Sequence record: LC494302.1 | Source: Escherichia phage SP27 | DNA length: 64,000 nucleotides | Reading direction: 5' to 3' (one strand) | Shown here: positions 8,178-26,767 of the stretch, one piece after another | Numbering within the stretch: position 1 is the first letter of the stretch | Layout: every line of letters starts with the position of its first letter | Notes under the pieces: model-generated | Databases searched by the model: none | What the model saw: only the letters and a program-made list of their open reading frames with translations | Told to the model about the DNA's origin: nothing | Program-made: the position numbers and the translations under genes

Positions 8178-8513
<336 letters not shown>

Positions 8514-9262: not shown

Positions 9263-9391
<129 letters not shown>

Positions 9392-9395
9392 AAAT

Positions 9396-9497
<102 letters not shown>

Positions 9498-9502
9498 AAA
9501 CC

Positions 9503-9663
9503 ATGACGCATGAAGAATGGATGAATGACATTAATTTTAGATATGCAGGTTTCGGTAACTGGAGAAAGTATCATTGGGAAATCATGTCAGACCCAGCAGA
9601 ATACGATAAACTTATAAACCATGAAGCGTATCCGTGGTTCTTTATTGAAATAATGGTACGAAC

Positions 9664-9667
<4 letters not shown>
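9503..9667 (+). CDS. MTHEEW-family small protein (54 aa)
   Basis: Own translation MTHEEWMNDINFRYAGFGNW...PWFFIEIMVRT. Confidence 0.6.
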
Positions 9668-9829
<162 letters not shown>

Positions 9830-9837
9830 AAAAAAAG

Positions 9838-10247
<410 letters not shown>

Positions 10248-10251
<4 letters not shown>

Positions 10252-10275
10252 CTAAATAATTCAGTACTGAGGATA
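10248..10275 (+). promoter_or_regulatory. degenerate copy of the 9839/10318 promoter
   Basis: TTGACTAAATAATTCAGTACTG conserved, -10 replaced by GAGGATATT; followed by a 9-codon mini-ORF. Confidence 0.35.
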
Positions 10276-10308
10276 TTAATATGTTTAAAGATGAACGTCC
10301 AGATTTGT

Positions 10309-10346
<38 letters not shown>

Positions 10347-10349
10347 GAA

Positions 10350-10691
10350 TTCCACAATCAGACGTATATGGTGTAAGTTACGTCGATGCAATCCAGAACA
10401 AGATCTCTGGTACTCTAGGAAGTGGTGAATGTTAACCTAGACGGGTTTGATAATTGGACGATAGGCAATTATTACTTGACTAGCAGGTTGAAACTAGAGG
10501 TGACAGTCCTTCACCAAACTGGAAAACCGGATGGACTTTTATTTAAAAGGGTAAGGCGTGGAAATATGTTTACAGAAGTTGCTTTTAGTAGCCTGTACGC
10601 CCCACGTCAAGGTAGCCGAAAGGCAAGTTAAAACGGATGGTTATAAAGCTGAATTAACAGCGGCGTTTAAAAGCGTCACCATCCATTTTTT
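10350..10691 (+). ncRNA. candidate structured RNA (alternative: 69-aa GTG-start ORF 10422..10631)
   Basis: GC-elevated, between promoter 10318 and hairpin GGATGGT..ACCATCC+T7; several stems incl. GCC-GAAA-GGC; no good SD for the ORF. Confidence 0.3.
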
Positions 10692-10708
10692 TAATTAAAG
10701 TTGGTGAT

Positions 10709-11473
<765 letters not shown>

Positions 11474-11491
11474 TTCACATGATATAGGGTG

Positions 11492-12161
<670 letters not shown>

Positions 12162-12180
12162 AGAGGTACTTCGAGTATGC

Positions 12181-12304
<124 letters not shown>

Positions 12305-12307
12305 ATA

Positions 12308-12394
<87 letters not shown>

Positions 12395-12449
12395 GACTGC
12401 CAAACAGCTTGAAGTACTTTGTAGTGCTGCACCTATGCCGACACTTGGC

Positions 12450-12550
<101 letters not shown>

Positions 12551-12562
12551 TATCTTACTTCT

Positions 12563-12652
<90 letters not shown>

Positions 12653-23923: not shown

Positions 23924-24889
23924 GTGAAAAAGCTTGATTTAAATACAATTGCCGAAGAAGTTCTGGATGAATGTTTTGCTAATGAAGAAGTCAACACACT
24001 AGAAGCCTTAGATTTCGTTGAAGATAAAGATGATAATGAAGGTAAAGTACAAAGCAGTTTCAAATATAATATTACACTTAAGCGACCACCAAATGTTTCC
24101 AATGAAGATCTAATTCGTGATATTCAAGCTGGTATCAATGTAAAGAAAAACACTGAACTGTTAGTTCGTTACAATTATGGACTGATTATTGATGTAGCAA
24201 GTAAATGTACTTGTTATATCCCATTTGAAGATAAGATTTCATATGGTGTTGAGGGGTTCATGAGAGCACTAAAAACCTTTGATCTTAATAAGAATGTTAA
24301 GTTCATTACCTATGCTTCTTCTAGTATTTACATGACAGTCTATAACGAAAGTTCTGACGCTAACTATATGGTACACTTCCCACGTTATATGAGTGTTCAT
24401 AAGATCAAAGTAAAAAGATTCTGCCAGGAATATATGCGTAAACATGGTGTTCGCCCAACACCTGAAATAATCTCAGAGGGTACTGGGATTGAGATTCAGC
24501 ATGTTAATAATTGTTTATTATTTCAAAGCGAATACACTTCACTGGATGCACCATTAGACGGTGTTACAGATGGTACATTAGGTGACATTATTCATTCACC
24601 TGCTTCTGATTTTAACCTCAATGTTGATAGTATCCGTGCACCTTTACGTTATGCTATCAATGAACTGACTAACGAATTGAGTACTAAAGAACGTGAGATT
24701 ATCCAGCGTGTTCATGGTCTAGGTGAATATGAACCTGAAACGCTTCGTGAGATTGCTGATAATGGTTTTGTTGATGATAATGGAAAATATGTTAAATCCC
24801 GTTCATCAATACACCGAAAGTACAGTGAAGCTATGCAAAAGCTTAAGAAGTTAGTACTTGCAAAAGGGTACGAATACGAAGATTTCTAA
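23924..24889 (+). CDS. sigma-70 family RNA polymerase sigma factor
   Basis: 321 aa; region-2-like YNYGLIIDVASK...EGFMRALKTFD...FITYASSSIY, region-4-like LSTKEREIIQRVHGLG...TLREIAD; GTG start behind AGGAG. Confidence 0.8.
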   Translation: MKKLDLNTIAEEVLDECFANEEVNTLEALDFVEDKDDNEGKVQSSFKYNITLKRPPNVSNEDLIRDIQAGINVKKNTELLVRYNYGLIIDVASKCTCYIPFEDKISYGVEGFMRALKTFDLNKNVKFITYASSSIYMTVYNESSDANYMVHFPRYMSVHKIKVKRFCQEYMRKHGVRPTPEIISEGTGIEIQHVNNCLLFQSEYTSLDAPLDGVTDGTLGDIIHSPASDFNLNVDSIRAPLRYAINELTNELSTKEREIIQRVHGLGEYEPETLREIADNGFVDDNGKYVKSRSSIHRKYSEAMQKLKKLVLAKGYEYEDF

Positions 24890-24897
24890 AGAACAAG

Positions 24898-24923
24898 GGT
24901 TGGCTTATGCCAACCTTTTTTTT
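24898..24923 (+). terminator. intrinsic terminator of sigma gene
   Basis: GGTTGGC-TTAT-GCCAACC then T8. Confidence 0.75.
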
Positions 24924-24944
24924 ATGGGATGAAGTAAAAGTTTG

Positions 24945-24953
24945 TGATATAAT
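24945..24953 (+). promoter_or_regulatory. extended -10 promoter candidate
   Basis: TGATATAAT, no clear -35; precedes ORF-free structured region. Confidence 0.4.
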
Positions 24954-24959
24954 TATCTT

Positions 24960-25445
24960 GTACAATTCTGTTGGCATGATATTCATGTACCTGATCCACT
25001 CGAAAACGTAGAGGGCAGTTGAGCAGTCCGACAGTGCGAACAGCAAAAGAAACCCGTTAGATGTGGGCATAGTTTGAACCCCTCACGGCAATGCGGCTGT
25101 ATAAAGAACCACGTTAGGATAGCTGGTGGTTCCTTGATAGACATATAAGGATAACACCTTACGAATTATCTAAGGGAGAGTTATCGAATTTTGTACAGGA
25201 AAGTTGCGTCCAAAATTTGAGTACTCACATTAAGTATTTGATTGCATAGATACTTAATGAAGATACACTATGTTTAAAAGTGTAGACCGTCATATGAAAC
25301 TGAAGTAGAGAGAAACAGGATGACCCGCTTTCGCACTCGTTATGAGTAATCTTCAATGCAATAGCTCTGATACCATCAGCGTCAAATTTCCCTCCTTGTG
25401 GGGGGAAGAAAAATCCCTTCCTCAAATCCCGTCAATATTAAAAGT
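24960..25445 (+). ncRNA. candidate large structured RNA (about 480 nt, class unknown; strand uncertain)
   Basis: Stops in all plus frames, GC higher than flanks, many nested stems (GAACCAC/GTGGTTC, GATAAC[CCTTA..TAAGG]GTTATC, TAAGTAT/ATACTTA, TTCCCTCC/GGGGGGAA). Confidence 0.35.
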
Positions 25446-25447
25446 CC

Positions 25448-25476
25448 TTGACAGTTATTAATCATTCGCGTAGAAT
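25448..25476 (+). promoter_or_regulatory. sigma70-like promoter
   Basis: TTGACA-17 nt-TAGAAT; drives 25541-26767 operon. Confidence 0.65.
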
Positions 25477-25540
25477 ACGTAGTATTAGAAGCGAACAGAC
25501 ATCTCGAAGAGATGGATGATTAACCATTAAGGAATATCAA

Positions 25541-25978: not shown

Positions 25979-26767
25979 ATGAGCACTATAGATGAACTGA
26001 TTCGACGGAATTCAAAATATTACCAACCATCAGAAATTGTAGGTAACATTACCAAATCAGAGTTTGGTCCAAATACTCGAAAACTCATTCATGTAATGTC
26101 ACGTGATGGCTTTAAATGTGATTGTTGCGGTGAATCTAATGTAGTATTCACTTTACACAAGCACAGTACTAAAGATCGTTATAAATTCAGACCTTATGTA
26201 CTTAAAGGGAAACGCCTTGTACGCATGACGTTAGACCATAATGTACTGGACTGTCTTCAGGGCGGTAATGATAAAGAGAACATGACTGCACTGTGTGAAG
26301 ATTGTAACGCATTACGCCAGCATAAGTTTGCTGAATACAGTGAGTTTAAACACTGGTATCATAACGCGGATCGTTCAATCGAGCCTGACGTTAACTACTG
26401 CTTCATTGAGTACATTAAGAATGCCAAAGATACATACATTCTTAAATCAATGTCACCTATTACCGTGTTTCCTGAGAACCTATTCACTACATTAAAGAAT
26501 AGTTTTATTGTAGGTGATATTGATGCATTCAAGTATTTTGACAAAGGTGCAAAACATTTTGAAATTCAATGTCTTAGTACTGCACTATGTGAACTCATTA
26601 AAATTTACATAAAAGAGTATTTGGGTATTGACAATGTACGTGTACCAGAGTATACTTTTTCTATTGAATTCGATTGTGAATCAATCAAAGAGTTTGGAAT
26701 TCTTTTCAATAAACAAATAGAACTTGCAATTCAAAACGAAATCAAGTACTATACTACTAACATTTAA
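25979..26767 (+). CDS. HNH endonuclease (free-standing)
   Basis: CDCCG...TLDHNVLDCLQGGNDKENMTALCEDCNALRQ = Cys pairs plus H-N-N of the beta-beta-alpha-Me fold in the N-terminal half. Confidence 0.8.
   Translation: MSTIDELIRRNSKYYQPSEIVGNITKSEFGPNTRKLIHVMSRDGFKCDCCGESNVVFTLHKHSTKDRYKFRPYVLKGKRLVRMTLDHNVLDCLQGGNDKENMTALCEDCNALRQHKFAEYSEFKHWYHNADRSIEPDVNYCFIEYIKNAKDTYILKSMSPITVFPENLFTTLKNSFIVGDIDAFKYFDKGAKHFEIQCLSTALCELIKIYIKEYLGIDNVRVPEYTFSIEFDCESIKEFGILFNKQIELAIQNEIKYYTTNI

Follow-up and report, generated by a model that had tools for sequence, protein, structure and literature searches.

GOLLD and ROOL are noncoding RNAs (ncRNAs) that form RNA-only multimers, as seen by cryo-electron microscopy (PMC12286853). 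PA5oct, a distant relative of the Rak2-like phages considered here, has strongly transcribed intergenic regions free of open reading frames (ORFs), termed ncRNA001-004, of which ncRNA002 measures 451 nt (PMC7318152), and ICP1, likewise a large virulent phage, has an ncRNA of ~800 nt (PMC7567579). Here we analyze a locus in a 64,000-nt stretch of the Escherichia phage SP27 genome (LC494302.1; this whole stretch is referred to as the window, and its coordinates are given on the plus strand unless stated otherwise), where a gap downstream of a sigma-70-family gene holds one copy of what is almost certainly a genuine family of structured ncRNAs encoded on the plus strand. The 651 bases around this RNA locus are 100% identical to Escherichia phage vB_Eco_slurp01 (LT603033.1, Asteriusvirus; hereafter, slurp01) and at least 99% identical in 121Q, PBECO4, phAPEC6, G17 and others, which are Rak2-like jumbo phages of ~350 kb; the window corresponds approximately to positions 4507-68506 of LT603033.1. 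A first-pass annotation of the window had proposed a large structured RNA of unknown class at this position, a view borne out by covariation-backed helices, plus-strand signals, the lack of an Rfam match and the lack of a coding signature. We rate the family as a new RNA class within a broader category that is not without precedent, namely large ornate ncRNAs of unknown function carried by phages. A full-text literature search, which included the reports on CBB, UE-S1 and Sharanji and a 2026 preprint, returned no description of the RNA.

Covariation supports a structured RNA on the plus strand

Homologues were collected by pattern scans of IMG/VR and of metagenome and genome collections and were filtered with nhmmer, and the family comprises 116 unique full-length members, which fall into 28 clusters when grouped at 78% identity. 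Pattern matches L040, L043, L044, L057, L058, L062 and L066, 16 of 24 genome-scan loci and some metagenome loci were discarded as chance matches. Forty-four non-redundant members (<93% identical) were aligned with MAFFT in a structure-blind manner (alignment A2), and hand-derived helices were then tested on this alignment, with partner columns slid by 1-3 positions and 500 shuffles as controls. The 426-nt core of the window copy (24960-25385, plus strand; nhmmer E <= 1e-110), which forms the first row of A2, terminates in ...CAGCGUCAA, and the core ends family-wide in an invariant ...CAKCGUCAR.

A first model of 12 helices (65 pairs) had 95.9% of cells paired, compared to 36-44% in the slid controls, with both partners changed in 51 pairs and a covariation score of 0.530 (0.07-0.09 in slid controls). 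Further pairings came from a mutual-information scan and inspection. In the resulting final model of 19 helices (89 pairs), covariation in homologues is extensive: 95.1% of cells are paired (35-40% in slid controls), 73 of the 89 pairs display compensatory changes on both sides, and the covariation score is 0.559 (0.06-0.09 in slid controls). None of the 500 shuffles attained any observed measure, a count that is not to be read as a probability. Five of the 19 helices are pseudoknot or tertiary pairings, each with compensatory changes. Additionally, a comparison of the slurp01 paralogues revealed near-invariant blocks between stems that differ in sequence and are still complementary. Columns dominated by G·U (GU 27, UG 30) place the RNA on the plus strand.

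The region had been described as ORF-free, and indeed all plus-strand ORFs within 24945-25476 are at most 39 aa long. Coding signal is likewise absent from the family, which displays no 3-periodicity and in which gap lengths modulo 3 number 690, 247 and 223 (classes 1, 2 and 0), with no enrichment of class 0; the median longest stop-free stretch in family members is 51-61 aa. These results bear on the proposal that the region is a DNA-level element (for protein binding, recombination or packaging) or a protein-coding gene that has decayed. In its favor, one could cite the near-palindromic 3′ module described below and the short hypothetical ORFs that some record annotators placed across the region. 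Compensatory changes preserve pairing and not sequence, the G·U-specific columns and wobble bias are strand-specific, and homologues show neither codon periodicity nor indels in multiples of three, so that this explanation is largely refuted and retains next to no probability.

A pseudoknotted fold with conserved joiners and exchangeable modules

The model contains the following features in its 5′ and central parts:

24968-74/25028-34, plus strand: helix P-A, CUGUUGG/CCGACAG, enclosing the 5′ domain; 96.7% paired, 6 of 7 pairs compensated
24975-79/24983-87, plus strand: variable hairpin P-A1, CAUGA/UCAUG; 4 of 4 pairs covary
24991-25001/25011-18, plus strand: hairpin P-B, CUG..CC.CUC/GAGGGCAG; 89.7% paired, 6 of 8 pairs covary
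25002-10, plus strand: conserved 9-nt loop of P-B, GAAAACGUA; an invariant UGAG follows the hairpin
25024-25/25035-36, plus strand: PK5, 2 bp crossing the 3′ strand of P-A; 100% paired (UA 24, AU 11, CG 9)
25040-44/25096-100, plus strand: P-C, ACAGC/GCUGU, enclosing P-D; 100% paired
25054-57/25085-88, plus strand: P-D, CCGU/ACGG, with a distal GGG/CCC; 100% paired
25091-93/25142-44, plus strand: PK3, AUG/CAU, its 3′ strand within GAUAGACAUAU; 100% paired (GC 34, AU 10)
25106-12/25126-32, plus strand: hairpin P-E, GAACCAC/GUGGUUC; 7 of 7 pairs covary
25117-20/25168-71, plus strand: PK4, GGAU of the P-E loop with AUCU upstream of UAAGGGAG; 77.9% paired on the MAFFT alignment
25146-49/25158-61, plus strand: hairpin P-F, UAAG(G)/(C)CUUA; 94.9% paired, AU changed to GC in 11 sequences
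25171-25178, plus strand: UAAGGGAG, its AAGGGA part invariant in 44 of 44 sequences (columns A213-A218) and also found in the island and K64-1 copies
25187-25217, plus strand: movable module with stem AAUUUUG/CAAAAUU and loop UACAGGAAAGUUGCGUC, read from the sequence and unquantified

The family also bears other marks typical of structured RNA. Variable hairpins carry GNRA caps, and P-A1 is capped by a GNRA loop in many homologues. P-C contains the conserved internal loops AAAAGAAAC and CAAUGCG, while two members (L011 and L017) have the extension of P-D swapped for CCG-UUCG-CGG. PK3 takes the form ACA x UGU in paralogue 3, and for PK4 complementary 4-5-mers were seen by hand in the subfamilies misaligned by MAFFT. 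Depending on the member, the movable hairpin module (loop GUACAAnnAAGnUnCGUC) sits in the middle of the RNA, inside P-J or at both sites. The purine-rich, Shine-Dalgarno-like UAAGGGAG is apparently unpaired, and no conserved start codon after it was found on reading the family sequences. As read from the sequence, the invariant AAGGGAG (25171-25178) could pair with the anti-Shine-Dalgarno of 16S rRNA.

The 3′ part of the RNA and the module that follows it contain these features:

25229-39/25248-58, plus strand: hairpin P-G, 11 bp with the 8-nt loop GAUUGCAU; 93.5% paired, 10 of 11 pairs covary, UG 30 at one pair
25241-47/25356-62, plus strand: PK2, AUUGCAU of the P-G loop with AUGCAAU of the 3′ tail; 7 bp, 92.2% paired, 6 of 7 pairs covary
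25264-69/25279-84, plus strand: hairpin P-H, UACACU/AGUGUA; 3 aligned pairs, 100% paired, all covarying
25285-25355, plus strand: 3′ core, a pseudoknotted three-way junction with an invariant GACCGU
25289-93/25320-24, plus strand: P-I, GUCAU/AUGAC, crossing P-M and P-L
25301-05/25351-55, plus strand: P-M, UGAAG/CUUCA
25308-12/25328-32, plus strand: P-L, GAGAG/CUUUC
25335-38/25344-47, plus strand: P-J, ACUC/GAGU
25367-71/25375-79, plus strand: terminal hairpin P-K, CUGAU ACC AUCAG, followed by an invariant GUCA within CGUCAA, to 25385
25388-95/25400-07, plus strand: hairpin of the 3′ module, UUCCCUCC/GGGGGGAA
25428-35, plus strand: second CCCGUCAA of the 3′ module

All 44 sequences retain the pairing of P-I, P-L and P-M as well as that of P-C and P-D, and the 3′ strand of P-I sits in the loop of P-L and thereby locks the three-way junction. 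P-L occurs as GAGAG/CUUUC, GGGAG/CUUCC, AGAAG/CUUCU, ACUGG/CCAGU and GGAAG/CUUCC. For PK2, at least nine complementary combinations of loop and tail were observed (e.g., AUUGCAU/AUGCAAU, GUCGAAU/AUUCGAC and UUCAUGU/ACAUGAA). Most of the helices that had been spotted by eye in the single sequence, namely CATGA/TCATG (P-A1), GAACCAC/GTGGTTC (P-E), TAAGTAT/ATACTTA (P-G), ACACT/AGTGT (P-H), ACTC/GAGT (P-J) and TTCCCTCC/GGGGGGAA (the 3′ hairpin), recur in homologues with covariation or conservation. CTGAT/ATCAG (P-K) is retained in part, as all members possess a hairpin at this place and its register varies. The proposed nesting GATAAC[CCTTA..TAAGG]GTTATC was not upheld: CCUUA pairs with the upstream UAAGG to form P-F, and GATAAC/GTTATC is unique to the window copy.

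Family-wide, the 3′ module consists of an 8-10-bp C-run/G-run hairpin (90 of 102 members) and then CAAAUCYCGUCAR, which provides a second CGUCAR (84 of 102), and in the whole slurp01 genome it is confined to the four RNA loci. Because its mismatches are G·U in 92 cases and A·C in 24, the module is read as an RNA hairpin within the plus-strand transcript. The 5′ arm of this hairpin in the window copy (UUCCCUCCUU, 25388-25397) contains an anti-Shine-Dalgarno-like CCUCC. Many members (e.g., L015, L027 and L041) have more conserved sequence downstream of the module, GAAUUGAGUU..CAGUACAAACGAAGUG..., with small hairpins that carry ACGAAGU loops; it could belong to the next promoter as upstream elements or specify a small companion RNA. 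A second -10-like element, TACTATAAT, lies past the RNA in a Serratia island (L092:3560-3690, minus strand).

A predicted transcription unit

The surroundings of the RNA core in the window are as follows:

23924-24889: sigma-70-family gene (Pfam Sigma70_r2/r3/r4)
24895-24918: strong terminator of the sigma gene
24945-24953, plus strand: extended -10 promoter TGATATAAT, from sequence
25448-25476: consensus promoter TTGACA-17-TAGAAT, after the RNA locus
25979-26767: HNH-like ORF of 262 aa, two genes downstream of the RNA

Both promoters had been noted at first pass, the extended -10 after the sigma terminator and the consensus promoter as the element that closes the region, and both were found again at these positions. 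An elevated GC content had also been reported; this holds for 24900-25199 (0.43-0.45) and for 25300-25499 (0.415), and fails for the middle (25100-25299), where it is only 0.335 (flanks 0.30-0.37).

A TGnTAnnnT motif is present upstream in 97 of the 102 family members with enough flanking sequence, 45-60 nt upstream of the first conserved helix and 7-15 nt upstream of the first conserved base, often with GGGACA or GGAACA at about -35; a promoter tool also flags the equivalent TG-TATAAT in paralogue 4. For the window copy, we infer a transcription start at ~24960. Positions 24945-25435 (plus strand) would form a transcription unit of their own, with an extended -10 promoter, a core RNA of ~426 nt, a conserved 3′ hairpin module and RNA ends that are predicted. 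In slurp01 paralogue 2 (L004:17840-17925, record ~135.35 kb), a terminator-like hairpin and T-run (GGTGACA..TGTCGCC TTTTTTTT) lie between the TGATATAAT promoter and the first RNA helix.

About half of the members have an intrinsic-terminator-like hairpin and U-run after the core, and the window copy has no such hairpin between core and 3′ module. This arrangement could suit a cis-acting leader, either a riboswitch-like sensor or a processive antiterminator, that controls the downstream operon (here small ORFs and the HNH-like gene): the window copy lacks a terminator between the RNA and the next genes, and in many members the terminator directly after the core resembles the expression platform of a riboswitch. 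We nevertheless regard a leader as very unlikely, as copy 4 and the island copies run toward genes of opposite orientation, downstream operons have consensus promoters of their own, no downstream gene family is conserved and the terminator stem lies outside the conserved core.

Searches against known RNA classes

A scan of the window at the Rfam 15 gathering thresholds returned tRNAs only, and scans of three paralogues (the window copy, paralogue 3 and a divergent one) at E <= 10 returned noise matches of 12-22 bits. The RNA thus matches no known Rfam family, including GOLLD, ROOL, OLE, raiA and HEARO. No tRNA or tmRNA was found in or near the RNA loci with Rfam and ARAGORN, other copies and islands included. 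Six tRNA genes are clustered at 9302-12641 (plus strand) of the window, ~13 kb upstream of the RNA.

Several classes were considered and rejected. The covariation topology has no terminal helix, and neither Rfam nor ARAGORN gave a match, which argues against RNase P RNA and tmRNA; an early resemblance to RNase P and hammerhead RNAs, based on a few A/G-rich stretches, was dropped since the covariation topology is different and the candidate positions are variable. A group I intron does not fit an intergenic RNA that is preceded by its own promoter, located 7-15 nt before the first conserved base, and has no Rfam match. Guide RNAs (IscB/TnpB omega RNA or reRNA, IS110 bridge RNA) were rejected on the basis of the neighbors, which are a sigma factor and small ORFs in the phage and unrelated, swapped integrases and cI/cro in islands, and a ToxI-like type III toxin-antitoxin RNA on the basis of the sequence, in which no internal tandem repeats were read, and of the lack of a conserved downstream ORF. 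Additionally, the sequences of PA5oct ncRNA001 and ncRNA002, considered as possible expressed homologues, contain none of the invariant motifs of the family.

The position of the RNA next to the HNH-like gene had been singled out as notable, and a group I-like or other self-splicing or mobile ribozyme tied to this endonuclease was considered. The size and pseudoknotted core do recall catalytic introns, the HNH-like ORF lies two genes downstream, and the repeated CGUCAR could in principle mark junctions. The neighborhood proved incidental, however: different neighbors flank the other three paralogues as well as the copies from other genera and from islands, with HNH missing beside all of them, and a Pfam search with the 262-aa ORF returned zero matches. 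Together with the own promoter, the lack of exon context and the absence of an Rfam intron or ribozyme match at E <= 10, this makes a mobile ribozyme highly improbable.

Paralogues in Rak2-like jumbo phages

In blastn searches against deposited phages, the core (~24990-25441) was found at ~70% identity, with 3-5 matching places per genome, in jumbo phages of Erwinia, Serratia, Pectobacterium, Cronobacter, Yersinia, Salmonella, Klebsiella and Xanthomonas. The 348-kb slurp01 genome contains four paralogues at 29.5, 135.4, 188.0 and 266.8 kb, all on the plus strand in gaps between unrelated genes, with copy 4 located among minus-strand genes. Other Rak2-like genera have up to five copies, as in CBB and in metagenomic jumbo contigs, and the true IMG/VR matches all reside on Rak2-like contigs of 350-370 kb or their fragments. 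Klebsiella phage K64-1 (Alcyoneusvirus) has a diverged full-length copy with new compensatory variants of P-L and PK2 (the latter CUUGAAU/AUUCAAG). The paralogues of Rak2-like phages, at 4-5 per genome, are anciently diverged.

The RNA fills 400-700-bp gaps that are "empty" or mis-annotated in at least 70 deposited jumbo-phage genomes, and several GenBank records place spurious hypothetical ORFs or a "repeat_region" over it; at the UE-S1 RNA locus, "repeat_region" is the only annotation. In UE-S1 copy 1 (L001:4073-4230), the orthologue of the window copy, the 5′ domain (P-A, P-A1 and P-B) is the copy-4 version and the rest is copy-1-like, a mosaic that looks like gene conversion between paralogues. 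Elsewhere in slurp01, a 2.2-kb stretch without annotated genes (record 76123-78315; L003:8124-10316) contains perfect tandem repeats of 60 nt x 3.3 (8315-8510) and 53 nt x 2.6 (10062-10201), and an Rfam scan of this stretch gave no match.

The distribution of copies bears on the possibility that the RNA is a replication-origin primer of the ColE1 RNA II or T4 oriF/oriG R-loop type. The structured transcript would form a persistent hybrid at the G/C-rich 3′ module, and processing by RNase H and polymerase of the phage would prime DNA synthesis, so that the 4-5 copies would be origins and an island copy would let a helper phage replicate the island. The four co-oriented copies are fairly evenly spaced over 348 kb, the conserved C-run/G-run element lies directly downstream of the core in an AT-rich genome, slurp01 encodes RNase HI and a Pol I-like protein, islands lack recognizable replication genes, and ColE1 RNA II also requires a defined fold. 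Cumulative GC skew, an indirect and uninformative measure here, has no inflection at copies 1-3 and tracks only transcription direction and gene orientation. The G/C module is often cut off from the core by a terminator, and no iterons or obvious unwinding element could be seen. Priming would also require far less than a fold with five pseudoknots and invariant joiners, and the 3′ hairpin behaves as RNA and not as a DNA site. We therefore consider an origin primer quite unlikely.

Copies in integrative islands of Enterobacterales

Full-length homologues (nhmmer E 1e-85 to 1e-96) were also found in chromosomes and metagenome-assembled genomes of Serratia fonticola, Serratia sp., Silvania, Enterobacter chinensis, Buttiauxella and other Enterobacteriaceae, with one RNA per island. 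In Serratia fonticola, the RNA adjoins the gene of a large serine recombinase and a pair of ParB/RepB-like genes, and duplicated rof and tilS lie alongside these. Two tandem rof genes, whose proteins are 97.7% identical, lie at the island edge (L092:4775-5490), which suggests that integration takes place in rof or close by and duplicates this gene. The commoner order is integrase, RNA, cI-like repressor (S24 and HTH), cro-like gene, 286-aa protein, 138-aa LprI-like protein, invertase and cargo, with the cI-like repressor gene converging with the RNA. The 286-aa protein is an Enterobacteriaceae-only hypothetical in which no domains were found. The RNA is present in only 2 of 5426 complete E. 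coli genomes, one of which, LR-29-1, has it in a ~10-kb island adjoining ffs.

A tblastn comparison of all island ORFs with the whole slurp01 genome identified as shared proteins only spurious ORFs over the RNA and one DUF4326 protein. The latter, in the LR-29-1 island (L219:14997-15590), shares 41% identity across 109 aa with a small slurp01 ORF (L005:7999-8316) between nrdD and its activase. The joint presence of the RNA in virulent jumbo phages, in multiple copies, and in small islands points to horizontal exchange and to a function at the phage-host or phage-satellite interface.

One such function would be that of a handle by which satellites engage phages: the island copy would mimic the phage RNAs, as a decoy in defense or as a signal to exploit the phage, while the phage copies hold the primary function. 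The same RNA does occur in Rak2-like phages and in small integrase-RNA-cI-cro islands of the same host range, and island RNAs cluster (>=78% identity) with one copy from a 349-kb jumbo-phage contig. Integrases, either a tyrosine integrase or several unrelated serine recombinases, are swapped around a conserved RNA-cI-cro module, and defense genes are found as island cargo (Kiwa; L114:13083-14625, a KwaB domain protein and an adjacent ORF). Induction or packaging of the islands by these phages is hypothetical, however, no proteins besides the DUF4326 protein are shared, and the idea accounts for why islands possess the RNA and not for how the RNA acts. It is compatible with the trans-acting RNA favored below; as an explanation in its own right, we deem it unlikely.

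Proposed mode of action

Our best guess, which builds on the sequence comparisons above, is that the RNA acts in trans as a compactly folded molecule with a host factor, be it as ribozyme, ribonucleoprotein scaffold or RNA-only assembly. Host sigma-70 RNA polymerase would start at the extended -10 promoter and produce an RNA of 430-480 nt, whose 3′ end would be formed by the conserved C-run/G-run hairpin and repeated CGUCAR motif. The RNA would fold into a 5′ domain (P-A, P-A1 and P-B), a central domain (P-C, P-D, P-E and P-F), the movable hairpin module and a 3′ domain, the last being a three-way junction locked by a pseudoknot, with four further long-range pairings joining the domains. It would then act as a folded molecule and not as leader, DNA site or antisense RNA; it could be a ribozyme, serve as scaffold for a partner that the host encodes or form an RNA-only assembly as GOLLD and ROOL do. 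Action in trans is suggested by the convergent genes that copy 4 and the island copies face and by the lack of a conserved neighbor. Since phages and islands have the RNA in common and no protein, any partner is likely encoded by the host or absent.

The trans-acting mechanism itself, with a host factor or RNA-only, we propose tentatively. Combined with the existence of a new ncRNA family, it forms an explanation that we hold to be rather probable, a grade that blends the two parts. A more far-reaching version is speculative and somewhat unlikely: the family would be a new class of large catalytic or self-assembling RNA, of a complexity like that of RNase P RNA or ROOL/GOLLD, of which the phages use 4-5 specialized versions early in infection and which satellite-like islands captured to sense, block or exploit phages. 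If true, this would reveal an RNA-level currency in phage-satellite-host conflicts.

Several points weigh against the favored explanation of a new family of trans-acting folded RNAs. The family is known from sequence comparison, and the ends of the RNA are predicted. The aligned sequences are related paralogues and orthologues, so that shuffle statistics overstate their independence; a stronger argument comes from the slid controls and from the many distinct pair types, which meet this caveat in part only. The minimum free energy of 24960-25385 on the plus strand is -105 kcal/mol, compared to -97.8 +/- 6.6 for shuffles (z = -1.09), and the minus strand has z = -1.87. As neither value is significant, thermodynamics alone would have missed the RNA, and the heavy base-pairing described in the first-pass annotation is upheld by comparison with homologues and not by single-sequence folding energy. 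In the window copy, no terminator precedes the promoter at 25448, which makes co-transcription with the downstream operon possible. Many members have a terminator-like hairpin that separates the core from the conserved 3′ module, yet this module has the look of RNA, which could reflect leaky termination, processing or two isoforms.

RNAs with so many covariation-backed helices and pseudoknots are rare. Such large RNAs have historically proved to be ribozymes, core cellular machines or, in the cases of GOLLD, ROOL and OLE, unexpected RNA-only assemblies. As the RNA is present in culturable E. coli phages (121Q, PBECO4, slurp01, phAPEC6 and G17), its function is directly testable.

Comparison with known systems

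RNase P RNA, group I introns and tmRNA share with this RNA their size class, several pseudoknots, GNRA-capped peripheral hairpins and swapped peripheral modules. They differ from it in that its 5′ and 3′ ends do not pair with each other, it has no P4-type or P3/P7-type arrangement and it gives no Rfam or ARAGORN match. Similar to ColE1 RNA II and the T4 origin transcripts, the RNA appears promoter-driven and several hundred nucleotides long, its fold may matter and a G/C-rich element follows it, with several copies per genome as for T4 origins. Unlike them, it displays no homology, no equivalent of the antisense RNA I was seen and a terminator often precedes the G/C element. While the PA5oct and ICP1 ncRNAs are known from expression, the family described here is known from a structural model.

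GOLLD and ROOL (RF01998 and RF03087) differ in having no sequence or structure match to this RNA in Rfam, and the RNA is set apart by the lack of a tRNA neighborhood and by its 4-5 diverged paralogues per genome. The hosts differ as well, being Enterobacterales jumbo phages here and Lactobacillales, or rumen or lake samples, for GOLLD and ROOL. Like GOLLD and ROOL, the RNA is large, predicted to be independently transcribed and highly structured, with many conserved unpaired nucleotides and an unknown function, and it is borne by phages and prophage-like elements. By analogy, RNA-only multimers are a possibility for this family as well.

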